Positions 7,260 through 31,728 are shown, counted from the first letter of the stretch. The stretch: DNA of 64,000 bases from an uncultured Paludibacter sp. (GCA_964390175.1 CAYMHE010000002.1:13930-77929); one strand, 5' to 3'. Translations and numbers: made by a program. The notes: a model not told the origin generated them from the sequence alone.

Positions 7260-7281
7260 CATCATCTCAAATTATACAGTT

Positions 7282-10577: not shown

Positions 10578-11120
10578 ACTTTAGTCAAAATGCATAAATT
10601 CTAAAGAACGATTAGCAAACATAAAAGAATGAAAGGCGAACAAACACTTTACACATTGCAGATGTAAGTTGAGGATAGCTTCCCTAAAGAGCTATTCAAT
10701 TTTCAATAACTATCAGTTGAGACAATTCTTGAAATAAATCATCTCAAAGATTTCTGTCGACAATGGCAAATAAACTTATTATAAGAACTAAATATCGTTA
10801 CCAACACAAGGGCTCTTTATGAAAACAACATACAGCATGAAGCAACTAACAAAATGCAAAGACCTGATAAACAAACATCATGTCGACAGCAATTTGTCTA
10901 CAAGCTACATATTTCAATAACAAAATATTAACATCACCCAACTCCGTTCATTTCTTGCTTCGCCATCAACAGATACAAAACAAGTTTTAACCGGACAACA
11001 GACACAATAAAACAAAAAAACCAACTTATACAATTTGAATTTAAGATGTGGACGCCTCAAGTCTTAAATTTTTTAATGAAGGCGCAATCAATCATTCATT
11101 TTATTTACAATTCCAAAGTT

Positions 11121-14231: not shown

Positions 14232-14242
14232 TTTTTGAAAAT

Positions 14243-16051
14243 ATGAAAAAGAAAATAATATCATTTATAGCAATAATATCAATCATATTTTTTGCTGCTT
14301 CATGCGACGAATACTTAGATGTCAACAACAATGTTGACACGCCTGATTGGGTGCAACCGAACTTAAGATTAGCTCCTATTCTGTCCGGATTTGTTTCTAA
14401 TTACTACGATGTAAGAATCGTTGCACCAATGTGCCAATACTTTAACGGAACATCTGTTCCTGCCGCCACCTATGGCGCAAAAATGTATTATGCACCCGCT
14501 AGCGATTATGCAGAAACATGGAAAATGGTTTACTGGGAATGGGGACAAAACCTCGAAGACATGATCAACGATGGAAAATCCCTGAATCAACCTCTTTATG
14601 CCGGCATCGGTTTAGCAATAAAAGCCTATGGATGGCATCAATTATCTTCAATACATGGCGAGGCACCTTGTAAACAGTTTTTAGACCCGGGACGAACAGT
14701 ATTCGAGTATGATTCTCAGGAATATATATTCAACCAGACAAGAAACTGGGCAAAAGAAGCCATAGAGATATTAAGCAAACCAGATGCAACTGTATATCCG
14801 GCTTCATTGGCGACAAATGACCTTATGTACAAAGGCGACAGAAGCAAATGGTTGAAATTCGCCTACGGTGTATTGGCTAAAAATTATATGACTATTTCAG
14901 CGAAAAATCCGGCATATCTCGACTCGGCAATAATAGCAGTCAACAACTCAATGACAAGCGCTTCAGACGATGCAACAGTTATGGTTGCAGGTGGAACTGT
15001 ATCGGCTCAGGTCAACTTCTTTGGAGTTATGAGAGCTAATTTATCTACCCTTCTGAATCAATCAGACTACATGGTAGACCTGATGACCGGGAAGGTAAAA
15101 TATTATGACCCCAACACCGGTAACACTGTAACAAACAATGGTGTAGTACAATTGATGGATAAACAATATATCACAGATACATTGACTTTGGATCCAAGAG
15201 CAATCTGTTTCTTTGGAACAAAGGATACAATGCCAAATGATTTATCAACCATCAACACAAAAACATATAAATTCACAGGCACATTACCAGGTCAGGCAAG
15301 CCAGGGAACATTGTTCGGAACAACATCTGCACCCAGCGTAGCCACTTCAGGTACAGGCCGTTGGATTTTCAGAGACAATGCACCATATATCGTTATGACT
15401 TACTCGGAACTATTGTTTATTAAAGCTGAGGCGCAATATCGGAAAAATCTGACAGCGGATGCGTTGGCAACCTTTAAGGATGCTGTAGCTGCAAGTATGA
15501 AGACTACTTCTACTTACATTGTTCAGGGCACCCCGGTAAAAACAAATGGTAAACAAACATCAGTAATAGGCGACAAAATAAGCGCATCCGTATTCAACTC
15601 CCTATCCGATAGCTACCTGAACAGCAAATATGTAAATAATCTTTCTCTTAACGACTTTGAATTATCACATATTATGATGCAAAAGTATGTAGCCTTGTTC
15701 CCCTGGGGATTAGACACCTGGAATGATTTACGTCGTTATCATTATGATTTAAAAACAGGATCAAAAGGCATTCCAGAAGATGGAACTTCATGGTCAGTCA
15801 ACAGATCGTTTCATAAAGCTGATACTGATGCAGGCAGAATTTATAAAGGATTCTATCTTCCATCAGCCGATGTTACCAATAGAAGATCTTCCTTTGAAAG
15901 CACTAATTTAGGCTCGCCATCTTACCGTATAAGACCCCGGTATAATTCGGAATACATATGGAACTTAACAGCCCTGGAGTCACTTAAGCCTATTTCGGGC
16001 ATAGACGCAAATTACAACACATCAATGATGTGGTTCTGTTTACCTCAATAA
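14243..16051 (+). CDS. susD: SusD/RagB family nutrient-binding lipoprotein
   Basis: Lipobox FAASC; YLDVNNN; YSELLFIKAEA and IMMQKYVAL..WNDLRR motifs; follows susC. Confidence 0.92.
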   Translation: MKKKIISFIAIISIIFFAASCDEYLDVNNNVDTPDWVQPNLRLAPILSGFVSNYYDVRIVAPMCQYFNGTSVPAATYGAKMYYAPASDYAETWKMVYWEWGQNLEDMINDGKSLNQPLYAGIGLAIKAYGWHQLSSIHGEAPCKQFLDPGRTVFEYDSQEYIFNQTRNWAKEAIEILSKPDATVYPASLATNDLMYKGDRSKWLKFAYGVLAKNYMTISAKNPAYLDSAIIAVNNSMTSASDDATVMVAGGTVSAQVNFFGVMRANLSTLLNQSDYMVDLMTGKVKYYDPNTGNTVTNNGVVQLMDKQYITDTLTLDPRAICFFGTKDTMPNDLSTINTKTYKFTGTLPGQASQGTLFGTTSAPSVATSGTGRWIFRDNAPYIVMTYSELLFIKAEAQYRKNLTADALATFKDAVAASMKTTSTYIVQGTPVKTNGKQTSVIGDKISASVFNSLSDSYLNSKYVNNLSLNDFELSHIMMQKYVALFPWGLDTWNDLRRYHYDLKTGSKGIPEDGTSWSVNRSFHKADTDAGRIYKGFYLPSADVTNRRSSFESTNLGSPSYRIRPRYNSEYIWNLTALESLKPISGIDANYNTSMMWFCLPQ

Positions 16052-16073
16052 TAACTAATAATTATTTCACTTT

Positions 16074-16928
16074 ATGAAAAAGATATATTTTATAGTTTTA
16101 GCTATATTTGGCATGTTGATTACTTCCTGCCAAACCAATGAGATAACATTCCCATTTGAAGAGCTGAATACTGATCAGTTTTCGGAGATCAGACTTATAA
16201 ACGCTATACCTGTTACCGGAAGCAGCGACTCTTTGGTTATCAACGGAAACAGATATTCATCAGTAGCCACCTCATTAGGAAGTTACTACCCGGCATCTGC
16301 TGCCAAATATTTTGCTCTGCCGGTTGGCGACAACAGTGTATCGCTGCGCTTCTTAGCGAAAACTACCGCTCCTACTGTTGATGCATTTACTTATTCTGCT
16401 AGCATTAAAACAACAAAAGGCAAATGGTCAGCTTATATTTATGATAAAACCAAAAGCCCTGTTTTACTGCAAGATGCAGAATCAGTACCAACTACAGATG
16501 CATGGAAAGATACGGTATGTTTCATTCGGTTTGTAAACTTTTTCCACAAATCGGATGGGGTAACTCCATTCGGGAAAATAACATTGAAAGCAAAAAAGAA
16601 CCTTACCGGCGCAGCATGGGAAACCATAGCCACGGATATTGATTTTGGAACTCAATCTTCAGAGTATTTTATCTACAAACTGAAGAATGTAACAAATCTA
16701 AACCCATGGTCGGGTGCGGAGGCAAGTGTCACTATTGGTTTTTTTGATAGTGCTGGAAATCAATATCAACAGTTTTCGTCGGCAACTGCTTCTACAAAAT
16801 CGGCCTACTCAAGTACAGGATGGAGCTTTGCAAAAGGTAGGGCTTATGTCATCTATATTAATGGCAAAGAAGGATCTACAAACAATAAAGATCAATTTAT
16901 TCGGCTGGGGTCATTTCAAACTAAATAA
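16074..16928 (+). CDS. PUL-associated surface lipoprotein (DUF4397-like beta-sandwich repeats)
   Basis: Lipobox LITSC; two repeats of IRL/FVN-type strands; third gene of the susCD operon. Confidence 0.65.
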   Translation: MKKIYFIVLAIFGMLITSCQTNEITFPFEELNTDQFSEIRLINAIPVTGSSDSLVINGNRYSSVATSLGSYYPASAAKYFALPVGDNSVSLRFLAKTTAPTVDAFTYSASIKTTKGKWSAYIYDKTKSPVLLQDAESVPTTDAWKDTVCFIRFVNFFHKSDGVTPFGKITLKAKKNLTGAAWETIATDIDFGTQSSEYFIYKLKNVTNLNPWSGAEASVTIGFFDSAGNQYQQFSSATASTKSAYSSTGWSFAKGRAYVIYINGKEGSTNNKDQFIRLGSFQTK

Positions 16929-17194: not shown

Positions 17195-17698
17195 TTACTT
17201 TTTTTCCAATTCAAGTTCGAGATATGGATACACAGGATTGTGGAAACCTACCGAACGGTATAGTTTTTCGCCGGCAACGGTAGTATGCAAAGCAAGCTTG
17301 GCAACTCCCTGCTGTTGAGCCTCATCAATCAACCGAAGCAGAAGCATTTTAGAAATCCCCCGACGTCTTGCTTCTGGTACAGTATACATATTCAATACAT
17401 CGCCTTCAACATAAGCAGCGCTGTTGAAATCGCCGGGAACAGAACGTAGCACAACGGCTCCATAAGCAACAGCCTTACCACCAAACACTGCAACCAATGC
17501 AATTACACTTCCATTTTGAATGCCTGAAGTGAAATATCGGGTGAGTTCACTCGTCAACGCTTTCACTACAGCTGCTGGTCTTTCACCCTGTAATTCTGCA
17601 AGATATTGAATCCGGCAGGCTATCATCGCTTCTACATCGCTTGTCCCTACGCGGGTTATTATAATTTTATCCAGATCAATATTCATAGTCAGCAGCAA
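17195..17698 (-). CDS. GNAT family N-acetyltransferase
   Basis: NMYTVPEARRRGIS motif A; LYRSVGF. Confidence 0.88.
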   Translation of the reverse strand: MLLTMNIDLDKIIITRVGTSDVEAMIACRIQYLAELQGERPAAVVKALTSELTRYFTSGIQNGSVIALVAVFGGKAVAYGAVVLRSVPGDFNSAAYVEGDVLNMYTVPEARRRGISKMLLLRLIDEAQQQGVAKLALHTTVAGEKLYRSVGFHNPVYPYLELELEKK

Positions 17699-17702
17699 TG
17701 TA

Positions 17703-18569
17703 TTAATACGGGCGTGCTACAACAATTCCGGTAGCAGATTTAGCAGCCTTGAGATAATCTTCCAATGTTTCATCCGAAACCAGTACTTTCATGTATTTCT
17801 GACTGGCATGAAGCATATGAATTCTTCCATTTTTTCGGAAAGCCAACACCACATGCTGAATATCAAGCCCCTGGATATTGGTAGTAATACCCAATATATC
17901 ACCATCTTTCAACTGATCTTCTATGGCAGCAATTTTACTCTCCGGAACGAAGCATTGTTTTCTTTTCGAAATCTCAACTTCCTGTGTTGCTATTACTTCA
18001 ATATACTTTCGGTTATTTCTTAGCTGAGTGTATTTTTCGGAATGCGTGCTCATAAAATCAACATTGAAATTAGTATTAGCCGTATTTAATTCGCAACTTA
18101 TACTTTTCACTATCTCTTTTTGCTCATTGTTATAAATCCAGTCGCTGAAATAATGCAAACGGGAGCTGTAATCAGTTAATTTTTTATTTCTATACCTTAT
18201 ACTCCTTAATTCATTCACGAAAGTAGCGAAATTCGGAGTTGCTGACTGAGCTGTACGAGCCAGGGCTAAACAATTTTCGGCAAAAGTAGTACAATCAAGC
18301 GCTCGCAGGTTAATAATCAGCTTTTCTGCTGCTCCACCATCTAAAGTATTTGCAACGTAGGGCGTTCCCACCAGCATTTTTCCGCCTGCAATGATCAGAT
18401 CACCTGTCGATAAAGTGGTTTTATTCTTGAGAGTTCCGAGAATATTTTCGACAATCAGGCTATCCTTTTTGTCAAAAGAAACAACACTTCTGCCATTCTG
18501 AGCTTCGGTTTTAAGATAAAAGCTCAACAGAAATGCAGTTAGAGAAATTAACAGAAATGATTGTTTCAT
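17703..18569 (-). CDS. N-acetylmuramoyl-L-alanine amidase-like protein (DUF1460/AmiA-type, NlpC/P60 fold), exported
   Basis: Signal peptide; GTPYVANTLD, LDCTTF, RLHYFSDW, GLDIQHV and HAS motifs. Confidence 0.85.
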   Translation of the reverse strand: MKQSFLLISLTAFLLSFYLKTEAQNGRSVVSFDKKDSLIVENILGTLKNKTTLSTGDLIIAGGKMLVGTPYVANTLDGGAAEKLIINLRALDCTTFAENCLALARTAQSATPNFATFVNELRSIRYRNKKLTDYSSRLHYFSDWIYNNEQKEIVKSISCELNTANTNFNVDFMSTHSEKYTQLRNNRKYIEVIATQEVEISKRKQCFVPESKIAAIEDQLKDGDILGITTNIQGLDIQHVVLAFRKNGRIHMLHASQKYMKVLVSDETLEDYLKAAKSATGIVVARPY

Positions 18570-18588: not shown

Positions 18589-19413
18589 TTATTTATTATG
18601 CTGTAATTTAAAAGCATCCACCGCTTTTTTTACCGAGCCCTGAATAAGCAGGATATTTTTAGCATGTTCGTAATCAATCCCAAGCTCTTCCACTATCATT
18701 CGGGCGCCACGGTCCACAAGCTTTGCATTCGACAACTGCATATTCACCATTTTATTCCCTTTTACGCGTCCGAGTTTAATCATCGTAATGGTGGTTATCA
18801 TATTCAATATCAACTTCTGAGCAGTCCCGGATTTAAGGCGGGTACTTCCAGTTACAAACTCCGGTCCCACAATGGCTTCGATTTTAATCTCAGCTTCCTG
18901 AGCAATAGGTGAATCCGGATTACAAGAAACTGAAGCAGTAAGGATACCATTGGCACGTGCATTGCGTAAAGCGCCAATCACATACGGTGTTGTACCCGAA
19001 GCTGCTATCCCTATTACAGTATCGTTCTGATTTATATTTCTTTCCTGCAATTCCTGCCATCCTTTTTCAATATCATCTTCGGCATTTTCCACCGGATTAC
19101 GCAAAGCTGTTTCACCTCCGGCAATTAAACCTACTACCAAACTCGAAGGCATTCCAAAGGTTGGTGGAATTTCGGACGCATCTAGCACACCTAAACGGCC
19201 ACTGGTACCAGCTCCCAAATAAAAAATCCTACCTCCACGCTTCATTCTCTCTACTATTTTCTCGACAAGTTCTTCTATTTGTGGTAAGGCTCTTGAAACA
19301 GCCAAAGGAACTTTCATGTCCTCTTCGTTCATTTCGATCAACAAATCATGCACCGATTTTTTATCTAAATTTTCGTGTAGTGAATTTTGCTCTGTAATTT
19401 TTTGAAATGCCAT
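18589..19413 (-). CDS. murQ: N-acetylmuramic acid 6-phosphate etherase
   Basis: GAGTSGRLGVLDASEIPPTF, GIAASGTTPYV, VGPEFVTGSTRLKSGTAQK. Confidence 0.96.
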   Translation of the reverse strand: MAFQKITEQNSLHENLDKKSVHDLLIEMNEEDMKVPLAVSRALPQIEELVEKIVERMKRGGRIFYLGAGTSGRLGVLDASEIPPTFGMPSSLVVGLIAGGETALRNPVENAEDDIEKGWQELQERNINQNDTVIGIAASGTTPYVIGALRNARANGILTASVSCNPDSPIAQEAEIKIEAIVGPEFVTGSTRLKSGTAQKLILNMITTITMIKLGRVKGNKMVNMQLSNAKLVDRGARMIVEELGIDYEHAKNILLIQGSVKKAVDAFKLQHNK

Positions 19414-19470: not shown

Positions 19471-20313
19471 CTATTGCTGACGTGCATGATATTTTATCAA
19501 GCCCTGCATTGGACTTTTCATAATACTACCAACAGTAACGCCGCAATCGGCCGCCGCTTCAAGCAATATCTCTTCAAAATGAAATGCTACCGAACCTACA
19601 AAAGAAGTTTTCATTGACTGAAAATTGTATTGCATTACGTTTCTTTTGAAAAAAGTCACGAATCCGTTGTATACAATATCCCGAATCGCAGGTTCGGAAA
19701 TATTTTCGCTGAGGAAAGGAGTAAAGGCTGCAAGATACCGATTCGGAAATGGTTTTTTATATACATTTTCGAGTACTACAGCCGGGGTGAGTTCGTATTT
19801 ATCCATAAAAACTTTTCTCAATTCGGCAGGAATCTGATTTTTCAAACAATCGGCCATAAAAGTTTTTGACAGTACCGCACCACTTCCTTCATCTCCCAGA
19901 ATAAAACCCAAAGGAGAAACATTGTCCACTATTTCGGAACCATCGTAGTAGCACGAATTCGATCCGGTACCCAAAATACAGGCTATCCCATTTTCGGTTC
20001 CACACAGAGCACGCGCAGCCGCCAGTAAATCGCTCTGCACTTCGATGGGAATGTGTTTAAAGTAAAAACCGAGGGCATTGCAAACGATTGCTTTTTTGTC
20101 GGGAAAAGAACAACCGGCGCCATAAAAGCAGATCGAACTGATGGGCAAGTCGCCTAATTCGGGCAACAAAAAGCATTCTATCTCAGACTTAATTTCACTC
20201 TCGGTCTGATAAAACGGATTGATCCCTTTAGTGAAAATTTGCTTTACCACCCCGGAATTTTCAACTACAAGCCACTCTGTTTTGGTGGATCCACTGTCTA
20301 CAATTAACTGCAT
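19471..20313 (-). CDS. BadF/BadG-type N-acetylglucosamine/N-acetylmuramate kinase (MurK-like)
   Basis: DSGSTKTEW, FYGAGC, ILGTGSN and LGDEGSG motifs; directly upstream of murQ; true start MQLIVD at 20313. Confidence 0.85.
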   Translation of the reverse strand: MQLIVDSGSTKTEWLVVENSGVVKQIFTKGINPFYQTESEIKSEIECFLLPELGDLPISSICFYGAGCSFPDKKAIVCNALGFYFKHIPIEVQSDLLAAARALCGTENGIACILGTGSNSCYYDGSEIVDNVSPLGFILGDEGSGAVLSKTFMADCLKNQIPAELRKVFMDKYELTPAVVLENVYKKPFPNRYLAAFTPFLSENISEPAIRDIVYNGFVTFFKRNVMQYNFQSMKTSFVGSVAFHFEEILLEAAADCGVTVGSIMKSPMQGLIKYHARQQ

Positions 20314-20500: not shown

Positions 20501-22483
20501 ATGAGAACAAATTTAAGCTCGCAAATAACGCTGACACGTATATCGAAAAGATATTATCAGCCCGATGATGTATTTGAACTCTCACGCGTTACCCGATTCG
20601 AAAAAGTAGCAACCGAAATATTCGAAAACGAAAAAGATGGTTCATTAAAAATTGCCGAAGAAATCGCCGAACTTATCAAATCAAAACAGGCTACTGGTGA
20701 AAATTGCATTTTAGGACTTACAAACGGGAAATCGACAGTAGGCATCTACAACGAACTGATCCGTTTGCACAAGAAAGCAGAACTCAGTTTTAAAAACGTC
20801 ATCGTATTTAATCTTTTCGAATACTACCCACTGAACAATACAACGAAAAGCTGTCTGGCACAAATGCACGAAATGCTTTTCGACCACATAGACATTCCGG
20901 CTGAAAACATTTACTCCCCCGATGGTATGCTCGATAAATCGGAAATCATGGGAGCTTGCAAAAGCTACGAACAAAAGATTGCCGATTTTGGAGGAATTGA
21001 CTTGCAAATACTGGGCATTGGTCGCTCGGGAAACATTGGTTTTAACGAACCAGGATCGCAGGCCAATTCGGGCACAAGGTTAATTCTGCTCGATAATATC
21101 TCGCGAAAAGATGCCGCCGAACTCTTCGGAAGCGTGGAGTCAGTTCCTATCAGCGCCATTACACTGGGTGTAGGTACTATTCTCAAAGCAAAAAAAATCA
21201 TTCTTGCTGCCTGGGGCGAACACAAAACATCAGTCATTAAAAGCGCAGTGGAAGGAGCGGTTTCGGAACACACACCGGCATCCTACCTACAGCTGCACTC
21301 CAACGTGAAAATGGTAATCGATCTGCATGCAGCAGGCGAACTTACCCGCATCAGTCGCCCATGGTCGGTGACTTCGTGCGATTGGGACGATAAACTCATC
21401 CGCCGCGCCATTGTTTGGCTTTGCATGAAGGTAAACAAACCTATTCTGAAACTCACCAACAAAGATTATAACGAAAATGGGTTGAGCGAATTATTGGCAC
21501 TCTACGGATCGGCCTATAATGTAAATATAAAAATTTTCAATGATTTGCAGCACACAATTACAGGATGGCCCGGAGGCAAGCCCAACGCCGACGATAGCAA
21601 CCGCCCTGAACGTGCATTGCCATTTCCAAAAAAAGTATTAATTTTCAGCCCGCATCCCGACGATGACGTTATATCAATGGGCGGTACGTTCAAAAGACTT
21701 ATCGACCAGAACCACGATGTGCATGTCGCTTATCAGACTTCAGGTAACATTGCCGTTGCCGACGATGAAGTAATACGCTTCCTTGCCTTCCTGAAAGGAT
21801 TCAAAAACATATACGACTCAGAAAATGAAGTACTTGAAAACAAATACAACGAATTCAGAACTTTCATTCTTCAGGATAAAAAAGAAGGAGATTCCGATAC
21901 GCGTGAAATTCTCGATCTGAAAGCATTGATCCGTCGTGGCGAAGCCAAAGCCGCATGTCGCTACATTGGCTTGCCATCGAAGAATATTCATTTTCTGAAT
22001 CTTCCGTTCTACGAAACAGGATCTGTAAAAAAATCACCTATCAGTCAGGCAGATGTGGACATAGTAAAAGCGCTGCTCGAAGAGCTGAAACCGCACCAGA
22101 TATATGTAGCAGGTGATCTTGCCGATCCGCACGGGACTCATAAAGTTTGTCTGGACGCCATTTTGGCCGCCATCGACGAAATGAAAGATGAAGCATGGAT
22201 GAAGGATTGCCGTGTATGGATGTATCGTGGCGCCTGGAAAGAATGGGAAATTGACCACATCGAAATGGCAGTTCCAATCAGCCCTGAAGAGTTACGCAAT
22301 AAACGCAACGCCATTCTTCGCCACCAATCCCAAATGGAAAGTGCACCTTACATGGGGAACGATGAAAGACTTTTCTGGCAGCGTTCAGAAGACCGCAACA
22401 GAGCCACTGCCGAATTGTATTCTCAATTAGGACTGGCCTCGTACGAAGCTATAGAAGCATTTGTTCAATACATTCCGGTTTAA
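20501..22483 (+). CDS. Glucosamine-6-phosphate deaminase-like domain (degenerate active site) fused to a PIG-L/LmbE deacetylase
   Basis: NagB fold with FNLFEY and GRSGNIGFNEPG; C-terminal SPHPDDD and DPHGTH metal motifs. Confidence 0.88.
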   Translation: MRTNLSSQITLTRISKRYYQPDDVFELSRVTRFEKVATEIFENEKDGSLKIAEEIAELIKSKQATGENCILGLTNGKSTVGIYNELIRLHKKAELSFKNVIVFNLFEYYPLNNTTKSCLAQMHEMLFDHIDIPAENIYSPDGMLDKSEIMGACKSYEQKIADFGGIDLQILGIGRSGNIGFNEPGSQANSGTRLILLDNISRKDAAELFGSVESVPISAITLGVGTILKAKKIILAAWGEHKTSVIKSAVEGAVSEHTPASYLQLHSNVKMVIDLHAAGELTRISRPWSVTSCDWDDKLIRRAIVWLCMKVNKPILKLTNKDYNENGLSELLALYGSAYNVNIKIFNDLQHTITGWPGGKPNADDSNRPERALPFPKKVLIFSPHPDDDVISMGGTFKRLIDQNHDVHVAYQTSGNIAVADDEVIRFLAFLKGFKNIYDSENEVLENKYNEFRTFILQDKKEGDSDTREILDLKALIRRGEAKAACRYIGLPSKNIHFLNLPFYETGSVKKSPISQADVDIVKALLEELKPHQIYVAGDLADPHGTHKVCLDAILAAIDEMKDEAWMKDCRVWMYRGAWKEWEIDHIEMAVPISPEELRNKRNAILRHQSQMESAPYMGNDERLFWQRSEDRNRATAELYSQLGLASYEAIEAFVQYIPV

Positions 22484-22534: not shown

Positions 22535-23989
22535 ATGAAACAAATCAATTGCTTTATTGCATTTAAAGATGCAGCTCAAACACGTGAGACTGTAGAGAAT
22601 TTACTAAAATCAGCTACTGTAAACAAAGTTTATCTATTGGCTACCGAGCCTACAAACGAAACAGTTCCCGGATGCGAAATGTTATTCATTGATGCAATGA
22701 ACAGCAGCGCCACCGTTCGGAAAATTGCAGAAAAATCGGATACTGAATACAGCCTTATTTACACGAAATTCACGACACTCGAGCCGGGACAATATGCTCT
22801 CGAACGCTTTCTCAGAGTGGCCAACGACACCCGCGCCGGCTTGGTTTATTCGGATTATTACCAGATTGCCGACGGCGTTCGTTCCAATTTGCCTGTAATT
22901 GACTATCAACAAGGCAGTTTGCGCGACGATTTTAATTTTGGTTCTGTTTTATTCTACAATGCAAGCTGTTTGAAAAAAGCAGTTGAGGAAACCACTCAGG
23001 AATACAAATTTGCAGGACTCTACAACCTGCGCCTGAAAGTTTCGGAATATGCCGAACTCTTCCACATGAACGAATACCTGTATTCGGAAGTAGAATCGGA
23101 TACAAGAAAAAGTGGCGAAAAGATTTTCGACTACGTGGATCCGAAAAACAGAACAGCACAAATTGAAATGGAAGTGGCCTGCACCGAACACCTGAAAAAA
23201 ATCGGAGCTTATCTGGCACCTCAATTCAAAAAAATTGAGTTCAACGAAGGTAAATTCCCTGTGGAAGCTTCGGTGATTATTCCTGTGCGCAACCGCGTAA
23301 AAACAGTGGAAGATGCTATCGTATCGGTGTTGTCTCAGAAAACTGACTTTGCATTCAACCTCATCATTGTTGACAATTACTCAACCGACGGCACCACCGA
23401 AATCATCGAAAAACATGCAAAAGCCGATAGCCGACTGATTCACCTGATACCCGAACGTACCGACCTTGGTATAGGCGGATGCTGGAATGCAGGCGTGGAC
23501 TCAGCACTTTGCGGAAAATTTGCAGTGCAGCTGGACAGCGACGATGTGTACGAAAACGAAAATACTTTACAAACCATAGTAAATGCTTTTTACGAGCAAA
23601 ACTGCGCCATGGTAATCGGCTCGTACACAATGACCAACTTTGCCATGGAAACCATTGCTCCCGGACTGATTGACCACAAGGAATGGACGCCCGAAAACGG
23701 CAGAAACAATGCTTTGCGCATCAACGGACTGGGCGCACCACGCGCTTTCTACACACCGGTATTGCGTAACATCAAAGTACCAAACACAAGCTATGGCGAA
23801 GATTACGCCCTCGGACTGGCCATAAGCCGCGAGTACCAAATCGGACGTATTTACAATTCGGTTTACCTCTGCCGCCGCTGGGACGACAACTCGGATGCTT
23901 CGCTCGACGTAGTGAAAATGAACGGACACAACTTCTACAAAGATAAAATCCGTACCATTGAACTGATGGCCCGAAAGAACAGAAATTAA
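22535..23989 (+). CDS. Two-domain glycosyltransferase family 2 protein
   Basis: C-terminal SVIIPVRNR, VDNYSTDGT, QLDSDD and YGEDY motifs; N-terminal degenerate GT-A-like domain (LVYSDY). Confidence 0.85.
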   Translation: MKQINCFIAFKDAAQTRETVENLLKSATVNKVYLLATEPTNETVPGCEMLFIDAMNSSATVRKIAEKSDTEYSLIYTKFTTLEPGQYALERFLRVANDTRAGLVYSDYYQIADGVRSNLPVIDYQQGSLRDDFNFGSVLFYNASCLKKAVEETTQEYKFAGLYNLRLKVSEYAELFHMNEYLYSEVESDTRKSGEKIFDYVDPKNRTAQIEMEVACTEHLKKIGAYLAPQFKKIEFNEGKFPVEASVIIPVRNRVKTVEDAIVSVLSQKTDFAFNLIIVDNYSTDGTTEIIEKHAKADSRLIHLIPERTDLGIGGCWNAGVDSALCGKFAVQLDSDDVYENENTLQTIVNAFYEQNCAMVIGSYTMTNFAMETIAPGLIDHKEWTPENGRNNALRINGLGAPRAFYTPVLRNIKVPNTSYGEDYALGLAISREYQIGRIYNSVYLCRRWDDNSDASLDVVKMNGHNFYKDKIRTIELMARKNRN

Positions 23990-24148
23990 ATCACTTATCA
24001 GGCTTCCTTACTGTTCGGAACGTTAATTATCGCCAATTATGGAGACAAAGCAATTAACTTAAATGAAAAAGGCACAGAAGAAGGGAATTTGAATTTTAAC
24101 GGAATGAAATTTGCTGCATAAGAAACATAATTTAAAAATAAAATAGAA

Positions 24149-25597
24149 ATGAAAAAGCATTACATTTTTAGCTTGTGTTTGTGTTTCTTATGCACAACTT
24201 TTTTGTCCCGCCTATCGGCACAGGAGTACAACAATTTCGATTTAAACAAGTACTACACACCAGACATTGTGCGCAATGCGCTGGATTTAGACTTTAGCTC
24301 TTCCGGTCAATTTGCAAATGTATATAACGAGTTTGATCATCTGTCCGTTACCAACGAGTCTTTTTCTTCGAACATTGCTGGCACAATAAATTCCTCATTC
24401 AGCACCTATAGAAATACGCGGAAAAGAATTTCGTCGCTGATGCTTAACGGATCTTTCTCAGGATCTTATTCCTCAATCCGGGAGACAACCGGATCCACCA
24501 ACAAAAATAACAGCAACACTGGTGGTCTGAACTTAAATTATTCCGACAAGTTTTATAAAACATCAACACTTTTTCTTTCAGCAGGTATAATAGCTCGGTT
24601 AATCCCAACATACAACAAACAACAGTTGCAATCCGATCCAAATCCAAAAGAAATAAATGAGAAAATTAACCGATATTATTTTAATCCATCTATAGGAATA
24701 GGTATAGGAAGAATAGAGCAGGTACAGGATGCCCGTCAGGCCATCTACCTGTTGAATGATTTATCAAAAAAAGGGGTTTTAAGCCGACAACTAACAAATA
24801 ATGAAGTTTTCAGTCTTGCACAGCAAATGTCGAAGATAAAAAACAAACGCTTCCTCGATTCACGTTTGCGCTTGATCGAAGAAGTTACAACCATCGATGC
24901 TTTCTTTGTAAACAATGGTTTACTTAACAAATCGGATGCTGCCTATTTTACAACTTTGTACGACAATTGGTTGTATGGAGCCGCTTTTGAAAGAAAATCG
25001 GGACAGACTTTTGAATTTCAAATCAACGGTGACTTTATAAAAAGTTACGGTAAAACTGAAACAAACTTTACCGTTCAGGATTCAGTCTATTGGACCAAAT
25101 ACAACTCCAATCTGGGCCATGGCGGATTGGCTTTGCTTTACACATTCGAAAAACCGTTTAAGCTCAACTGGCAACATTCAGTAAATGCAGTATTAAACGC
25201 TTTTACCGAACCTACCGAGCATACAAATTCGAATAGCAACAGCACAACCAAAAGCATTGCCTCTTTTAACAACAGCCAGATATCGCTTTCCGGAAATTAC
25301 ATTTTGGGTTATTACCCAAATTCACGTACAAATCTTCAGCTTGGAATAAGTCAGTTATTTGGTCGGCAGATTACAAAAAGCACAACGGTTAATGTAGCTG
25401 CAAATCAAACTAAAAACATCAACGCCAGAACACAAATCGATTTTTCGACCTACTATTATTTATCCCCGCAATTAAGAATTTCGGGAACAGTATGGGCATA
25501 CAAAACTTATCATAGAAGGAATTATGCAGATTCCGGTTCAAAAGCTAATAATTTTAACGCGCAGTTTAATGCCACTTTGAACTACGCATTTTTCTAA
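24149..25597 (+). CDS. Hypothetical exported protein, probable outer-membrane beta-barrel
   Basis: Signal peptide; alternating beta-strand pattern; C-terminal LNYAFF. Confidence 0.6.
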   Translation: MKKHYIFSLCLCFLCTTFLSRLSAQEYNNFDLNKYYTPDIVRNALDLDFSSSGQFANVYNEFDHLSVTNESFSSNIAGTINSSFSTYRNTRKRISSLMLNGSFSGSYSSIRETTGSTNKNNSNTGGLNLNYSDKFYKTSTLFLSAGIIARLIPTYNKQQLQSDPNPKEINEKINRYYFNPSIGIGIGRIEQVQDARQAIYLLNDLSKKGVLSRQLTNNEVFSLAQQMSKIKNKRFLDSRLRLIEEVTTIDAFFVNNGLLNKSDAAYFTTLYDNWLYGAAFERKSGQTFEFQINGDFIKSYGKTETNFTVQDSVYWTKYNSNLGHGGLALLYTFEKPFKLNWQHSVNAVLNAFTEPTEHTNSNSNSTTKSIASFNNSQISLSGNYILGYYPNSRTNLQLGISQLFGRQITKSTTVNVAANQTKNINARTQIDFSTYYYLSPQLRISGTVWAYKTYHRRNYADSGSKANNFNAQFNATLNYAFF

Positions 25598-25618
25598 ACA
25601 ACAACACTTTTTTTATTA

Positions 25619-26515
25619 ATGAACAATCTCAACAATCAGGTAAAATCTTTATTCGACGAGCAAGTTGCCAACTGGGAACTTGCCCGTCGGAATTTTGCAG
25701 GACTCAAAACCGTACAAACCAAGACCTTTAATTTCGGCGATTTCGACATAAAAGTACAGTTTAACCCGGCGCGCATTGTATCCTCAGGAGCAAAAGTCGA
25801 CGCCAAAACCATAGCCGAACGCAAATGCTTCCTGTGCAGCGAGCATTTGCCAACGGAACAAAAAGGAATAGAGGCGGGAAATTATACCATTTTGGTGAAC
25901 CCCTTCCCTATTTTTCCTGAACATTTCACAATTCCGCACACCGAACATATTCGCCAGCAGATAAAACCGTTTTTTGGCGATATGCTCGAACTTGCCAAAG
26001 CAATGGACGATTATCTGATTTTTTACAACGGGCCCAAATGTGGCGCTTCGGCACCCGACCATATGCACTTTCAGGCAGGCACCAAGGACTTTTTACCGCT
26101 GATCAGCGATTATAAAAGGCTCAAAGCTACCCACACTGATGTGTTGGTAGAAGATGATGAGTACACGGTATTCTGCATGAAAAATTACCTGCGCACCGTT
26201 TATTGCATTGAATCGGGAAATGCTAAAGAATCGAAACTGGTATTTAATTCGCTATACACCAACCTTCAGCAATCGAACACCGAAGAGCCCATGATGAATG
26301 TTGTGTGTACTTTCGAAGATGGCATATGGTACACCTTCGTCCTTCCCCGCAAGGAGTTCCGGCCATGGCAATTTACTGCCGAAGGAGATCAGCAGCTAAT
26401 GGTAAGTCCGGCTACGGTAGAGATGTGTGGCATTTTTATAACTCCCATTGAGCAGCATTTCGAAAAAATAACAAAAGAAGATGTGATCAGCATACTTGAA
26501 CAAGTGAGTCTTTGA
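25619..26515 (+). CDS. DUF4922-like protein; HIT-superfamily HxHxQ nucleotidyltransferase/phosphorylase
   Basis: QFNPARI, CFLC, LVNPFPI..H and YNGPKCGASAPDHMHFQ motifs. Confidence 0.8.
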   Translation: MNNLNNQVKSLFDEQVANWELARRNFAGLKTVQTKTFNFGDFDIKVQFNPARIVSSGAKVDAKTIAERKCFLCSEHLPTEQKGIEAGNYTILVNPFPIFPEHFTIPHTEHIRQQIKPFFGDMLELAKAMDDYLIFYNGPKCGASAPDHMHFQAGTKDFLPLISDYKRLKATHTDVLVEDDEYTVFCMKNYLRTVYCIESGNAKESKLVFNSLYTNLQQSNTEEPMMNVVCTFEDGIWYTFVLPRKEFRPWQFTAEGDQQLMVSPATVEMCGIFITPIEQHFEKITKEDVISILEQVSL

Positions 26516-26543
26516 AAAGACACAGTGAACATATAATTTTTTA

Positions 26544-26774
26544 GAAAATGCTATTTCAAAAAAAGGAAAGGCACTTAAAAAAACAGAAAAAACTATTTAA
26601 AAAATAGCAGAAGCTATATCAAAAACAAGAGAAGCACTTTCAAAAACAAGAGAAGCACTTTCGAAAACACGAGAAGCACTTTCGGAAACAAGAGAAGCAC
26701 TTTCGGAGACAAGAAAAGCACTTTCGGAGACACGAGAAGAATCTATATAGAAAGACAAAGCATTTCAGAAGAAG
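26544..26774. repeat. Tandem array of ~11 x 21-bp units (core AGAGAAGCACTTTCRRAAACA)
   Basis: Five near-identical units at 26628-26732 with degenerate flanking units in the same register. Confidence 0.9.
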
Positions 26775-26848
26775 TAAAAACACCTTAAATTTACCCTTTT
26801 ATTGCAGAAATAATATTATCTTTATAAGCAAATAAAAAACAATATGGT

Positions 26849-27217
26849 ATGAACACAAACATTATGTCAGCCGACGAAACCAAAAACAACATGCCACACA
26901 ACGGCAAGCTTCTTACAGATTATCTGCTGAAAAACGACATCAATCGCGCAGCGCTTGCCCGCAAAATGAATGTATCGAACACAAGTGTGTATCAGTACGC
27001 CGTAAGTCCATCGTTACAAATGAGCATTTTGTGGAAAGCAAGTATTGCACTCAACCATAACTTCGTAGCCGAACTGGGCGAACTGCTCCCCGTGGAACAC
27101 AAAACGGGCAACGAGATACAATTGGAAGAAGAAATAAAAGCTTTAGAAGCTCAGCTGGAAAAACTGAACCTTGAACTATCGGTTTACAAGGATGTGATCA
27201 GCAAATTCAAGCCATAA
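26849..27217 (+). CDS. XRE/Cro-C1 HTH protein with C-terminal coiled coil
   Basis: HNGKLL..INRAALARKMNVSNTSVYQY HTH; leucine heptads LEEEIKALEAQLEKLNLEL. Confidence 0.75.
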   Translation: MNTNIMSADETKNNMPHNGKLLTDYLLKNDINRAALARKMNVSNTSVYQYAVSPSLQMSILWKASIALNHNFVAELGELLPVEHKTGNEIQLEEEIKALEAQLEKLNLELSVYKDVISKFKP

Positions 27218-27221
27218 TGCA

Positions 27222-28406
27222 ATGAGATACAAGCTAACATCCATTCTGTTGCTATACTTCGCAGTGCTTGTTTCAGCTCAAAGCACGGCCAGATACGTCG
27301 ACACCGACGTGCGCGCCATGCAAATACCAAAAGCATCAACAAGAACAGTGGAGGATATTGCTGCCTACATTAAGGCTAACTTCAGTACCGACGAAGAGAA
27401 AGCACGTGCCGTTTTTTACTGGATTTCGCAAACCATAAGTTACGACATTGCCAACATGTACACTACCAACTATTACGACAATGAACAGCAGGTGGTGGAT
27501 GAGGTAATGAAATGGCGCAAAGGAGTGTGCATGCATTATGCCACGCTGATGAGCTGGATTTGCAACCGGACAGGCGTGAAAACCTTTGTGGTGGGCGGCT
27601 ATACCCGCCAGAACGGTAAAGTCGACATTCTTTCGCACGCCTGGAATGTAAGCTTTGTAAATGGAAAATGGCAAATGATCGACCCTACCTGGGGCACAGG
27701 TCAAATAGTCAACGGCAAATTCGTACGCCAGCTGAACAATGAGTTTTTTCTGATGCAACCGGAAGAAAGCATCAAATCGCACTGTCCGTTCGACCCAATG
27801 TGGCAATTGCTACAGTACCCTATCGACAACAATAACTTTTCGAAAGGAATTGTAGCCATCGACAAAAGCAAACCCCTGTTCAGTTTCAACGATTCGATTG
27901 CAGCTTACGAAAAAGCAGATGAACTGACCCGTCAGAAAACGGAGCTGCGCCGAATGGAAAACAATGGTATCAACAGCAAACTCCTTCAGGAAAACCAGCA
28001 TAACATCAAGAACAGAATCAACGGCATTCAGAAAAACGCATCGATAGAGATATTAAACAATGCAGTGAATACGCTCAACCAGGGAGTGAACGACCTGAAT
28101 GAATTTATCAATTATCGCAACAAACAATTTACACCCAAAAGATCGGATGCTGCGCTCAAACTAATGCTTGAGAACATTGAAGTAACCCTTGCCCGGTACA
28201 AAACAGAAGTGGCCGGCATAGCCTATGCCGATCCGGGTATAAAATACTCATTGAGCGAACTCAACAAAACAATGCAAAGCATGGAGGAAGCATTGGCAGA
28301 ACAGAGAACTTTTTTAGATAAATATTTGTCAACCTCAAAAATATTCAGAAAATCATTATTTTATAACTATAATTGGCTGGGAATACCCCTTCATCAAAGC
28401 AAATGA
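27222..28406 (+). CDS. Exported transglutaminase-like (papain-fold Cys-His-Asp) protein
   Basis: Signal peptide; GVCMHYA, HAWN and IDPTW triad motifs; helical C-terminus. Confidence 0.8.
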   Translation: MRYKLTSILLLYFAVLVSAQSTARYVDTDVRAMQIPKASTRTVEDIAAYIKANFSTDEEKARAVFYWISQTISYDIANMYTTNYYDNEQQVVDEVMKWRKGVCMHYATLMSWICNRTGVKTFVVGGYTRQNGKVDILSHAWNVSFVNGKWQMIDPTWGTGQIVNGKFVRQLNNEFFLMQPEESIKSHCPFDPMWQLLQYPIDNNNFSKGIVAIDKSKPLFSFNDSIAAYEKADELTRQKTELRRMENNGINSKLLQENQHNIKNRINGIQKNASIEILNNAVNTLNQGVNDLNEFINYRNKQFTPKRSDAALKLMLENIEVTLARYKTEVAGIAYADPGIKYSLSELNKTMQSMEEALAEQRTFLDKYLSTSKIFRKSLFYNYNWLGIPLHQSK

Positions 28407-29743
28407 ATCATAAAGAACCGGTAATACAAGTAGGTATTTTAACCTCAGAAAAAATTGAATTTGTGCTGAATGGCATTTTCATAGCACAAACAGGAAAAGA
28501 TTATAGCGGCCATCAAACTGCCGCCTACGACAATGGCAAAGTGCTTTTCGACGAAAAAGAGTTCGATGAGCTGATTTTCGAACCCATCAACGGCGAAACA
28601 TCATTCGACCTTATCAATGTGGTCATCGGCATTAATTTTCACTGGGAACGCAAAGAAGACCAGCGTTTCAAAGGCGCGCTGCGCATCATTGCTGAAGAAA
28701 ACAACATCACTGCCATCAACCGTATCGGCGTTGAAGACTATCTCACAAGTGTAATTTCGAGCGAAATGAGTGCAACTGCCTCCGACGAATTGCTCAAAGC
28801 ACATGCAGTAATTTCGCGCAGTTGGTTACTCAAACCGCTACACGAACAAGATAGCGCGAGCCACGAGCCGGCAGCTCCAACAGAATTCAACACTGTGGAT
28901 ACAGAAAATGCAATTGAAACACACATCAAATGGTACGAACGCGACGCCCATACGCACTTCGATGTTTGTGCCGACGATCATTGTCAGCGCTACCAGGGCA
29001 TTACGCGCGCTACTACCAAAGCGGTGGAAAAAGCCATCGAGGCTACCCGCGGCGAAGTATTGATGGCAGGAGATGAAATATGCGATGCACGTTTTTCAAA
29101 ATCCTGCGGCGGCGTTTCCGAGACTTTCGAGAACTGCTGGGCGCCCAAACATTACACGTATCTTTCGAAAGTGATAGACAACCTGACTGCACCCGAGGGC
29201 TTCGAACTCGATTTAACCATTGAAGCCAATGCCGATCGATGGATTCGTCAGTCGCCCGAAGCATTTTGCAACAGTACCGACAAAAAAGTCTTATCGCAGG
29301 TGCTCAACAATTACGACCAGGAAACCACCGACTTCTACCGCTGGAAAGTAGAGTACAGCCAATCGGAACTATCAGAATTATTGCTTCGTCGTTCGGGCAT
29401 CGATTTTGGCTACATCGTCGACCTGGTGCCTGTAAAACGAGGAGAATCGGGACGACTTGTCGAACTCAAAATTATTGGAACAAAACGAACCGTCATCGTA
29501 GGCAAAGAATTAGAAATTCGCAAATGGCTTTCGAATTCTCATCTCTACAGTTCGGCTTTCGTAGTTGACAAAACGGCTATCGAAAATAACATTCCACAAC
29601 AATTCATACTTACAGGAGCCGGTTGGGGACATGGAGCAGGCCTTTGTCAGATAGGCGCTGCCGTTATGGGAGAAAAAGGTTATCAATACAAACAAATCTT
29701 GTTACACTATTTCAGAGGAGCATCGTTGGAGAAAATATACTAA
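28403..29743 (+). CDS. SpoIID/LytB domain protein (lytic transglycosylase family)
   Basis: EDYLTSVISSEM, LKAHAVISRS, CADDHCQRYQG, GWGHGAGLCQ and ILLHYF motifs; ATG overlaps the upstream stop (ATGA). Confidence 0.9.
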   Translation: MNHKEPVIQVGILTSEKIEFVLNGIFIAQTGKDYSGHQTAAYDNGKVLFDEKEFDELIFEPINGETSFDLINVVIGINFHWERKEDQRFKGALRIIAEENNITAINRIGVEDYLTSVISSEMSATASDELLKAHAVISRSWLLKPLHEQDSASHEPAAPTEFNTVDTENAIETHIKWYERDAHTHFDVCADDHCQRYQGITRATTKAVEKAIEATRGEVLMAGDEICDARFSKSCGGVSETFENCWAPKHYTYLSKVIDNLTAPEGFELDLTIEANADRWIRQSPEAFCNSTDKKVLSQVLNNYDQETTDFYRWKVEYSQSELSELLLRRSGIDFGYIVDLVPVKRGESGRLVELKIIGTKRTVIVGKELEIRKWLSNSHLYSSAFVVDKTAIENNIPQQFILTGAGWGHGAGLCQIGAAVMGEKGYQYKQILLHYFRGASLEKIY

Positions 29744-29859
29744 TCCAACAGTTGTTACAATTCAACAAACCGGTCGGATAAAAATCCGACAAGGAAATGA
29801 ATCATCAGAGAACAACCTCAAATTTAAAACAGAAAACAAGAAATTAAACTTCAATACAA

Positions 29860-31728
29860 ATGGAAAACAAACAAACAAAGAAGAGCTCACCCTGGGCATG
29901 GATACCTACCCTCTATTTTGCAGAAGGCTTACCCTATGTAGTGGCCATGACGGTAGCAGTAATTATGTACAAACGTCTCGGCATTTCGAACACCGATATT
30001 GCCCTTTACACAAGTTGGCTGTATTTGCCATGGGTTATTAAACCTTTCTGGAGTCCGTTTGTGGATTTGATAAAAACAAAACGCTGGTGGATTGTCAGTA
30101 TGCAAATGCTGATCGGCGCCGGTCTGGCCGGAGTGGCATTCCTCATCCCTATGCCCTTCTTCTTTCAGGCTACACTGGCTGTGCTTTGGCTCATTGCCTT
30201 CAGTTCGGCAACACACGATATCGCCGCCGATGGATTTTATATGTTGGCGCTCAATAGTTCACAGCAGTCTTTCTTTGTGGGCATCCGCAGCACCTTTTAT
30301 CGCCTGGCTATGATTTCGGGACAAGGCGTACTGATTATCATTGCCGGTAGCCTCGAAAGCTGGACAGGACTTGAACCCATGCAATTTACGGTCCAATCGT
30401 CCAATACGGCACAAACAGAAATAATACTGCCGTCACCAAATACAAACATTGCCCCTACCGACGAAATGACTTTTATTGCATTTCCCGAAAACCTTGTTCT
30501 GAACACAAACAACATCAGTGTCGATTCTTTGAATAAAATCAGGACTTTTGCTTCGGAACAAAATCAGGTAAATGGCTTTGTTGCTATCGAAAAGACAGCT
30601 GCTGAAATTAAAAAAGACGATGCTTCATGGTGGACACACAATGTTTCGGCACCTTTGGGTCATTTTATAAAAACAAATTTTGGCGAAAAAAGAGAGATCG
30701 TTTCGGGCAGTGATGGGAAAGTGGGAAATGCCGGCGTTGTAGCTGTTCGGCTGAGTAAAAAACCTGAACCCGGACAGGATGTGGTACTTAATTCAAGTTT
30801 TGGCAAAGGAGACAAGAGCATCTCTTTGCTCTCAGGCGAACGCGTAGTATTTAACGAAAGCAACTGGGACAAACCCGCTTATCTGGTTGTTCAGCTCGAT
30901 TATAAACTCAGAGACGAAGTAAAAAGCGAATTCAAAGGTATTTCGGGCAATATAAAGCTGGCCTGGAGCATCACCTTCTTTATTCTTGCCGGTATGTTTA
31001 TATTGTTCTTTGTTTACCACAGATTTGTACTTCCCCGCCCGACTTCCGACCATGCCACTGCCACCCATTCGGCAAGCGACATCTTGCGCGAATTCGGAGG
31101 AACTTTCAAATCGTTCTTCCAGAAACCGGGAGTAGGACTTGCCATTACCTTTATGCTTCTCTACCGTTTAGGCGAAGCCATGTTGGTAAAAATGGCATCG
31201 CCATTCCTGCTCGATGCCCGTGAAGTTGGAGGACTTGGACTTACAACAGGTCAGGTAGGGTTGGTATATGGAACTGTTGGTATCATTGCACTCACACTCG
31301 GAGGTATAGTAGGAGGTATTGCAGCATCGCACAAGGGACTTAAATTCTGGATATGGCCCATGGCTTTGTGTATTACATTACCACACTTGGCCTTCCTTTA
31401 TTTATCGTGGTTTCTACCCGAAAATTTATTCCTGATCAATGCAGCGGTGGCCTTCGAACAGTTCGGATATGGATTCGGATTTACAGCTTACATGCTATAT
31501 ATGATTTATTTTGCCGATGGAGAACACAAAACAGCGCACTATGCCATTTGTACCGGTTTTATGGCCATGGGCATGATGCTCCCGGGCATGATAGCCGGCT
31601 GGTTGCAGGATTTGCTGGGTTACAATCATTTCTTTATCTGGGTAATGATTTGTGCCATTCCTACACTAGCTGTTATACCATTTATGAAAATCGACAAAAA
31701 CTATGGTATAAAAAAGAAAGAAGCTTAA
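29860..31728 (+). CDS. ampG: AmpG-like MFS muropeptide permease with a large inserted soluble domain
   Basis: LYFAEGLP, LPWVIKPFWSPFVD, SATHDIAADG and LYRLGE motifs; ~190-aa hydrophilic insert. Confidence 0.85.
   Translation: MENKQTKKSSPWAWIPTLYFAEGLPYVVAMTVAVIMYKRLGISNTDIALYTSWLYLPWVIKPFWSPFVDLIKTKRWWIVSMQMLIGAGLAGVAFLIPMPFFFQATLAVLWLIAFSSATHDIAADGFYMLALNSSQQSFFVGIRSTFYRLAMISGQGVLIIIAGSLESWTGLEPMQFTVQSSNTAQTEIILPSPNTNIAPTDEMTFIAFPENLVLNTNNISVDSLNKIRTFASEQNQVNGFVAIEKTAAEIKKDDASWWTHNVSAPLGHFIKTNFGEKREIVSGSDGKVGNAGVVAVRLSKKPEPGQDVVLNSSFGKGDKSISLLSGERVVFNESNWDKPAYLVVQLDYKLRDEVKSEFKGISGNIKLAWSITFFILAGMFILFFVYHRFVLPRPTSDHATATHSASDILREFGGTFKSFFQKPGVGLAITFMLLYRLGEAMLVKMASPFLLDAREVGGLGLTTGQVGLVYGTVGIIALTLGGIVGGIAASHKGLKFWIWPMALCITLPHLAFLYLSWFLPENLFLINAAVAFEQFGYGFGFTAYMLYMIYFADGEHKTAHYAICTGFMAMGMMLPGMIAGWLQDLLGYNHFFIWVMICAIPTLAVIPFMKIDKNYGIKKKEA

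Follow-up and report, generated by a model that had tools for sequence, protein, structure and literature searches.

The reuse of 1,6-anhydro-N-acetylmuramic acid (anhMurNAc), the anhydro form of N-acetylmuramic acid (MurNAc), is normally the work of the enzyme AnmK. Tannerella forsythia has no AnmK; its AmpG is reported to import the disaccharides of N-acetylglucosamine (GlcNAc) GlcNAc-MurNAc and GlcNAc-anhMurNAc, and the bacterium grows on GlcNAc-anhMurNAc and poorly on free anhMurNAc, by an anhydro-disaccharide route that the same report says “remains to be explored” (PMC7670621). Its ampG operon (Tanf_08345-08385) reads xanthan-lyase-like, gtf, gtf, lytB, ampG, namZ1, murT, murK, murQ (PMC5388701; bioRxiv 10.1101/2021.12.02.470905). 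The genes gtf-gtf-lytB-ampG-namZ1-murTKQ are described as co-transcribed and the operon as glycosylation-related (PMC5388701), with LytB given as a putative lytic transglycosylase and both gtf as of unknown function (bioRxiv 10.1101/2021.12.02.470905). Here we analyzed a 64,000-nt stretch of a Paludibacter-like genome (G000 in our sets; 92% complete), called the window below, in which positions 22535-31728 carry a related locus coding for a GT2 glycosyltransferase, a DUF4922 protein, a SpoIID/LytB protein without a signal peptide, and an AmpG-like permease. GT2, DUF4922, and the signal-less SpoIID are one conserved, sometimes fused module. By comparative genomics, this module probably processes AmpG cargo in the cytoplasm, standing in for AnmK.

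The locus keeps the gtf-gtf-lytB-ampG order of T. forsythia, with murK/murQ nearby and three inserted genes; however, its murK/murQ genes are divergent and namZ lies elsewhere. The T. forsythia operon has the same order as Bacteroides-type loci (Golvesin-like, GT2, DUF4922, SpoIID, AmpG, NamZ, MurT). Matching the locus and Tanf proteins by gene order, we infer that Tanf_08355 is the DUF4922 gene. The cited portions of the T. forsythia papers do not note the GDPGP1-like nature of the second gtf, the signal-less LytB, or the AnmK trade-off described below, and in the literature, subscription papers and supplements aside, we found no functional assignment for the GT2, DUF4922, and SpoIID module genes. 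Compared with the Escherichia coli AmpG-NagZ-AnmK-MurQ pathway, the likeness lies in AmpG import of the anhydro-disaccharide and in MurQ as a sink, whereas neither AnmK nor a NagZ-type GH3 was found in this genome at its 92% completeness. An earlier note on this DNA had named four co-oriented genes. These core genes are indeed all on the + strand, but three local insertions of the same orientation bring the number of genes in the span to seven. The note’s remark that AmgK, MurU, AnmK, and NagZ are absent is true of the locus itself, but an AmgK-like/MurU-like pair is present elsewhere, on contig C76, and a BadF-type kinase and murQ stand just upstream. The C76 pair would take MurNAc as in the Pseudomonas-type AmgK/MurU shortcut, and the module would act upstream of this shortcut rather than replace it.

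The partnership of the four genes was followed in an order set of 161 genomes (137 families, this genome included) and in a phylum set of 221 genomes with 35 strong DUF4922 matches, six weak ones (E 2e-6 to 4e-4) having been dropped beforehand. All 39 DUF4922-positive genomes among the 161 also have GT2 and SpoIID orthologs and an AmpG-like gene, and this co-occurrence supports the link to murein recycling that the earlier note had drawn for GT2, DUF4922, cytoplasmic SpoIID, and AmpG. The note had expected the same of murQ, which is present in only 20 of the 39 and was rejected as a fixed module partner. Matches beyond the 39 genomes of the order set are few for the enzymes: GT2 in G074 and G351, SpoIID in G074 and G323, and AmpG-like genes in 23 further genomes. 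The G074 GT2/SpoIID pair has changed motifs. The G351 GT2 relative (L147:4250-5689; 28% identity), which stands before murK-murQ in a genome with neither DUF4922 nor SpoIID, has lost the catalytic motifs and the Pfam match, and may represent either decay or a regulatory leftover. In the phylum set, this genome excluded, a SpoIID ortholog accompanies DUF4922 in 34/34 genomes, even where the genes are not adjacent; two more genomes have partial SpoIID matches.

Neighborhoods were compared across 140 loci, namely all 38 order loci, 22 of the 34 phylum loci, and the best 80 of 591 genome-scan loci; these sets may overlap, some contigs are short, and the range beyond Bacteroidota rests on the best 80 of 591 loci plus one atlas row. 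Near DUF4922 we found GT2 in 121 loci, SpoIID in 90, and AmpG in 80, followed by Golvesin-like proteins (45), a kinase (44), NamZ (41), and MurQ (26). The clustering of GT2, DUF4922, SpoIID, and AmpG is far beyond chance. Fusions tell the same story: among the 120 top-ranking long GT2 homologs, 118 join GT2, DUF4922, and SpoIID in one chain with intact catalytic motifs, an architecture that occurs in Segatella/Paraprevotella. As 103 of these 120 fall into one cluster at 70% identity (9 clusters in total), the triple fusion reflects a handful of independent events rather than 118. Of the 120 top-ranking long DUF4922 homologs, 118 are DUF4922-SpoIID and 2 are GT2-DUF4922 proteins, in 26 clusters at 70%.

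The three proteins carry well-preserved active-site motifs. The GT2 protein scores 80.6 bits for PF00535 (gathering score 23.3), and its AlphaFold 2 model (pLDDT, the predicted local distance difference test score, 92) has two GT-A domains. The C-terminal domain carries the invariant residues D334-S-D336-D337, E422-D423, and R447-R448-W449 (alignment of 67 rows) and a family-specific segment, HKEWxxxNGxNNALRINGLGAPRAF, whereas the N-terminal domain is degenerate, with no DxD and 14 invariant among 165 positions against 63 among 244. The top fold match is chondroitin polymerase, which also has two GT-A domains but in a different arrangement (root-mean-square deviation, rmsd, 21), and residues 242-484 match single GT2 domain structures (Z 20-23, rmsd 2-3.8); no structure matched in the fold searches indicates the donor or acceptor. 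A predicted GT2-DUF4922 complex scored 0.02 against a mark of 0.32, which weighs neither way.

The HxHxQ motif reported for the DUF4922 protein holds as H148-M-H150-F-Q152, and C70, C73, H102, H110, H148, H150, and Q152 are invariant in the alignment. The GDPGP1_C domain (PF26216) was seen in relatives, on 82-100% of the members of the three nearest atlas clusters and on most fused homologs, and there is distant homology to yeast Apa2 (profile E 2.3e-6). Two assignments were rejected: GalT (TIGR01239 16.6 bits against a cut-off of 650, the motif alone being common) and the diadenosine tetraphosphate (Ap4A) phosphorylases Apa1/Apa2 (PF19327 19.3 bits against 23.1). The likeness to GDPGP1 and plant VTC2 lies in DUF4922 with HxHxQ, together with GDPGP1_C in relatives of the locus protein; the difference is that the locus protein is bacterial and tied to GT2 and SpoIID. 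GDPGP1 converts GDP-glucose into glucose-1-phosphate and GDP (PMC7041677). Uridine diphosphate (UDP), the nucleotide assumed in the earlier note, is no more than a candidate: the substrates of the nearest annotated relatives are guanosine diphosphate (GDP) sugars, and by analogy this suggests a nucleotide other than UDP.

The SpoIID protein shares its fold with known lytic transglycosylases (5I1T from Clostridioides difficile, E 3.4e-14, and also 4RWR from Bacillus anthracis), as well as the catalytic glutamate and zinc-type motif found in these and in chlamydial SpoIID. Its invariant Glu121 aligns with 5I1T chain position 77, which is E101 after a 24-residue offset, and is the catalytic Glu by this alignment. 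The motif H183-x5-C189-x3-H193-C194 is also invariant; it is one residue shorter than H-x5-C-x4-H-C and was equated by motif, not by the aligner, with H134/C140/H145/C146, the known zinc-site residues as given in PMC6221140. In contrast to these SpoIIDs, the locus protein has no export signal, has an extra N-terminal beta domain of ~100 residues, is 18% identical, and occurs fused to cytoplasmic enzymes. Chlamydial SpoIID is reported to have both lytic and hydrolytic activity (PMC6635528).

Judged by their N-termini, which are polar or form the domain’s first strand, none of the three enzymes has a signal peptide, as previously proposed. Among 31 SpoIID orthologs, 30 start no more than 10 residues from the domain or sit fused behind DUF4922, and one has a 34-residue upstream extension that is a product of the first-ATG rule. 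An alternative TTG start at 28373 in the locus gene would add 10 polar residues. A hydrophobicity screen alone cannot separate SpoIID (1.95) from secreted proteins (2.1-2.8). From the missing signal in orthologs and its place as the C-terminal part of fusions, SpoIID is very likely cytoplasmic.

The gene whose distribution is largely complementary to that of the module is anmK. Of the order genomes, 7 have both AnmK and the module, 32 have the module without AnmK, 103 have AnmK without the module, and 19 have neither; the odds ratio is 0.04, although kinship among the genomes makes the effect look stronger than it is. Among the phylum genomes, 19 of the 34 with the module, spread over five families, have no AnmK. 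The figure for those without the module is 7 of 142, or 51 of 186 when the 44 genomes of family f18, which have neither, are counted in. The Bacteroides thetaiotaomicron control has DUF4922 and no detected AnmK. MurNAc sinks, on the other hand, are retained: AmgK-like genes are found in 32 of the 39 module genomes and MurQ in 20, none of the 39 lacks both (p about 0.005), and all 7 AmgK-less module genomes keep MurQ. In addition, the five of these 7 that also lack AnmK were tested for MurU, and all are without an ortholog. These patterns indicate that the product of the module is likely free MurNAc and argue against direct delivery of UDP-MurNAc. Of 10 hand-picked genomes, four have GT2 and DUF4922 without a SpoIID ortholog; all four have AnmK, and three of them have a signal-less short NagZ beside DUF4922. 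This short form was found in 7 order genomes and in none of the 39 with the full module, although a GH3 form of ~1000 aa is present in 7 of the 39 at E<=1e-35, a cut-off that splits these forms, so that more may fall just below it. By eye, the ~1000-aa forms seen in loci look secreted.

We propose, with a probability of about 0.42 and by analogy with characterized families, that the module, needing neither AnmK nor a cytoplasmic NagZ, converts AmpG-imported GlcNAc-(anhydro)MurNAc to GlcNAc-1-phosphate and free MurNAc. If gene order can be carried over from T. forsythia, AmpG would import peptide-free GlcNAc-anhMurNAc and GlcNAc-MurNAc, a cargo that would pose two cytoplasmic jobs, the splitting of GlcNAc from MurNAc and the opening of the anhydro ring. 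The earlier note had SpoIID cutting imported glycan, a poor fit, as disaccharide cargo does not contain the MurNAc-GlcNAc bond that SpoIID cleaves. However, the anomeric carbon concerned is the one at which the catalytic Glu of SpoIID works, and lytic-transglycosylase chemistry reversed with water would therefore open the 1,6-anhydro ring on the disaccharide, making AnmK dispensable. The inverting GT2, run in reverse, would then transfer GlcNAc from the disaccharide to a nucleoside diphosphate (NDP), freeing MurNAc. Such a reversal is uphill against the cellular UDP-GlcNAc pool and would thus need a partner that drains the NDP-sugar. DUF4922, judging from GDPGP1/VTC2, could be that partner by phosphorolysing NDP-GlcNAc to GlcNAc-1-phosphate, returning the NDP and pulling the GT2 step; a nucleotide other than UDP would also avoid draining a wall precursor. 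The two enzymes jointly would be a split glycoside phosphorylase, with near-equilibrium phosphorolysis as the sum, and MurNAc would pass to AmgK/MurU or MurK/MurQ. This division of labor between SpoIID, GT2, and DUF4922 is tentative, and we regard it as somewhat short of an even chance. The model would explain the AnmK trade-off, why MurNAc kinases are kept, and why NagZ and AnmK reappear where SpoIID is missing.

Several observations weigh against this proposal. AnmK coexists with the module in 7/39 order, 15/34 phylum, and 8/10 hand-picked genomes, the order set holds one within-family swap only (f48), and lineage or lifestyle may account for part of the trade-off. The absence of NagZ from module genomes is limited by the GH3 cut-off, with the longer forms straddling the threshold, and the absence of SpoIID in the four hand-picked genomes comes from assemblies of unestablished completeness. 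NagZ beside GT2-DUF4922 in three of these genomes also fits a pair doing a job other than that of NagZ. In T. forsythia, extracts are reported to release some free anhMurNAc, and the authors allow that the bacterium may grow poorly on anhMurNAc because its uptake is limiting (PMC7670621). Finally, the SpoIID, GT2, and DUF4922 steps are inferred from family chemistry run backwards.

The best-surviving alternative, which we consider unlikely, is that GT2 in reverse uses NDP to convert (GlcNAc-)anhMurNAc into NDP-alpha-MurNAc, from which DUF4922 would make MurNAc-1-phosphate, while SpoIID merely trims longer imported glycans and another hexosaminidase removes GlcNAc. Reasoning from GT2 chemistry, the stereochemistry (beta-anhydro to alpha-NDP) suits an inverting enzyme, SpoIID would retain its normal reaction, and GT2 and DUF4922 are the tightest pair (121/140 loci), persisting beside a cytoplasmic NagZ in three genomes. 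We know of no intramolecular GT2 reaction of this type. Moreover, MurNAc-1-phosphate requires MurU, yet the five tested module genomes without AmgK, AnmK, and MurU all keep murK/murQ, and the four genomes with GT2 and DUF4922 but no SpoIID ortholog all keep AnmK.

A second alternative follows the earlier note: the GT2/DUF4922 pair would feed UDP-GlcNAc and UDP-MurNAc directly and replace AmgK/MurU, with DUF4922 as a GalT-like uridine monophosphate transferase. The HxHxQ motif and the CxxC/His zinc-type ligands, laid out as in GalT, speak for it, as does the absence of AmgK from 7/39 module genomes against 9/122 others (p 0.07). Nevertheless, an AmgK-like gene is kept in 32 of the 39 and in this genome, MurQ covers all 7 losses, the GalT model falls far below its cut-off, and the domain pair in the nearest clusters is that of GDPGP1. 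We consider this alternative quite improbable, and the module as a substitute for AmgK/MurU that delivers UDP-MurNAc was rejected, anmK being the trade-off gene.

A forward-acting GT2 that builds a glycoconjugate (a protein glycan or modified muropeptide), with DUF4922 sanitizing an NDP-sugar pool in the manner of GDPGP1 and a regulatory link to ampG, appears slightly less probable still. Forward transfer is the GT2 norm, the T. forsythia operon is called glycosylation-related (PMC5388701), and GT2 and DUF4922 stand without recycling neighbors in several Ignavibacteria-type, Acidobacteriota, and Verrucomicrobiota loci. But the SpoIID fusions and the SpoIID ortholog in 34/34 phylum genomes, even when non-adjacent, are hard to reconcile with it, the AnmK trade-off is left unexplained, and the partnerless GT2 relative beside murK-murQ has lost its catalytic motifs. 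The least probable alternative is a primer cycle in which SpoIID runs its known reaction exactly in reverse, condensing anhydro-disaccharides into a tetrasaccharide, while the two-domain GT2 removes GlcNAc and MurNAc from the non-reducing end and loads them onto NDP for DUF4922 to drain: it needs no new SpoIID chemistry, the top structural match is a two-domain alternating polymerase, and triple fusions could channel intermediates, but the N-terminal GT-A domain has no DxD and is less conserved, and the condensation is likely unfavorable at cell concentrations.

Returning to the proposed disaccharide phosphorolysis, the gene cluster is real, conserved, and partly published, and comparison across genomes gives good evidence that it makes up for missing AnmK. 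Gene content makes it likely that numerous Bacteroidota from gut, mouth, and sediment use the module to degrade recycled cell-wall disaccharides without AnmK, which most of them lack, and the module supplies three soluble, conserved candidates for such a route. The broader claim, that Bacteroidales and Ignavibacteria use a third, ATP-free route with SpoIID as anhydro-ring hydrolase and a reversed GT2 plus a GDPGP1/VTC2 homolog as a two-part disaccharide phosphorylase, is possible but rather doubtful. No ATP would be consumed in opening the ring, and the glycosidic energy would be kept as GlcNAc-1-phosphate. If true, such a route would explain how T. forsythia, a MurNAc auxotroph, lives on the anhydro-disaccharide, give the first bacterial DUF4922 function, and add two unusual reactions (anhydro-ring hydrolysis by SpoIID, and a physiologically reversed GT2 with an NDP-sugar phosphorylase). 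It would also be relevant to the consumption of NOD-active cell-wall fragments by the dominant anaerobes of gut and mouth, and could serve as a drug target in the auxotroph.

The AmpG-like permease scores 166.6 bits for TIGR00901 against a cut-off of 350, which 0/161 order genomes pass; T. forsythia AmpG is reported to be 24% identical to E. coli AmpG (PMC5388701). The protein has a central non-membrane insert, and its orthologs are either short (~430 aa) or long (~550-640 aa). Matches at E<=1e-25 occur in 23 of 122 module-free genomes, with none in most AnmK-positive genomes, a pattern suggesting that anhydro sugars also enter by another route, one that does not need AmpG.

Table 1 Genes of the studied span and associated genes on its 5′ side, in window coordinates
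Gene product	Role	Position	Strand	Length	Matches and remarks
GT2	core	22535..23989	+	484 aa	two GT-A domains; PF00535 E 1.7e-22
DUF4922 / GDPGP1-like HxHxQ nucleotidyl-transferase or phosphorylase	core	25619..26515	+	298 aa	PF16269 E 3.9e-65
Signal-less SpoIID/LytB protein	core	28403..29743	+	446 aa	TIGR02669 160.6 bits, cut-off 83.3
AmpG-like major facilitator superfamily (MFS) permease	core	29860..31728	+	622 aa	TIGR00901 E 6.8e-49, below cut-off
Hypothetical, secreted-looking	local insertion	24149..25597	+	482 aa	no Pfam/NCBIfam match; 1/140 loci
Small helix-turn-helix (HTH)-like protein	local insertion	26849..27217	+	122 aa	weak HigA match, E 0.0045; 0/140 loci
Transglutaminase-like, secreted-looking	local insertion	27222..28406	+	394 aa	PF01841 E 1.1e-15; 0/140 loci
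NagB deaminase fused to PIG-L-type de-N-acetylase	associated	20501..22483	+		immediately 5′ of GT2
BadF-type sugar kinase	associated	19471..20313	-		PF01869 E 3.7e-4, below cut-off; 44/140 loci
MurQ MurNAc-6-phosphate etherase	associated	18589..19413	-		TIGR00274 325 bits, cut-off 302
AmiA-like amidase, secreted-looking	associated	17703..18569	-		PF07313 E 5e-52; would give peptide-free glycan

The three inserted genes (Table 1) were rejected as module members on their 1, 0, and 0 occurrences in the 140 related loci; the transglutaminase-like gene overlaps the start of the SpoIID gene. The GT2/DUF4922 gap holds a swappable cassette (24289-25607): parts of the window appear as assembled contigs in 18 RNA-library runs, a related contig joins 24288 to 25608 through 1262 different letters, and loose ends lie at the same borders (24288/25608) in further runs. 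The resident cassette gene has no family match and a lower guanine-cytosine content (0.376). Promoter-like sites (17 against 26.1 expected, with a sigma-70 pattern ill-suited to Bacteroidota) and terminators (15 against 14.5) are not above chance. The BadF-type kinase is presumed to be MurK-like by its position before murQ.

Among the variable neighbors, a secreted-looking Golvesin_C/fn3 protein of ~1000 aa precedes GT2 in 45/140 loci (for example L028:11666-14665; contig C44 in this genome). It corresponds in position to the “xanthan lyase” gene of T. forsythia and is a candidate for an upstream peptidoglycan-processing step. GNAT acetyltransferases of three kinds are repeatedly inserted in or beside the module (L005, L008, L009, L012, L018, L049, L054-L060, L080, L093, L104, L106, L113, L136), and one is also present at 17195-17698 of the window. 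In several Ignavibacteria-type loci (L039, L043-L047, L050, L053), the genes after GT2-DUF4922 code for a SpoIIE-type response regulator, a STAS protein, a PAS histidine kinase, and a sigma-54 activator.

Elsewhere in the genome, the AmgK-like gene on C76 (L061:1432-2859) is fused to a RapZ-like C-terminal domain and adjoins the MurU-like gene, both scoring below NCBIfam cut-offs; the fusion may couple recycling to amino-sugar sensing. AmgK-like kinases are found in 145 of the 161 order genomes, as two separate genes in some. This genome also has murA and two NamZ genes outside the locus. In the window, a SusC/SusD-like pair and a lipoprotein, recognized by eye, adjoin the recycling cluster (11046-16928, + strand), and ~10 kb upstream of the sugar-recycling cluster (6042-8421, + strand) an NlpC/P60-SH3 peptidase is followed by an enolase-family epimerase (Pfam), presumably YkfC-like and YkfB-like enzymes of stem-peptide recycling.

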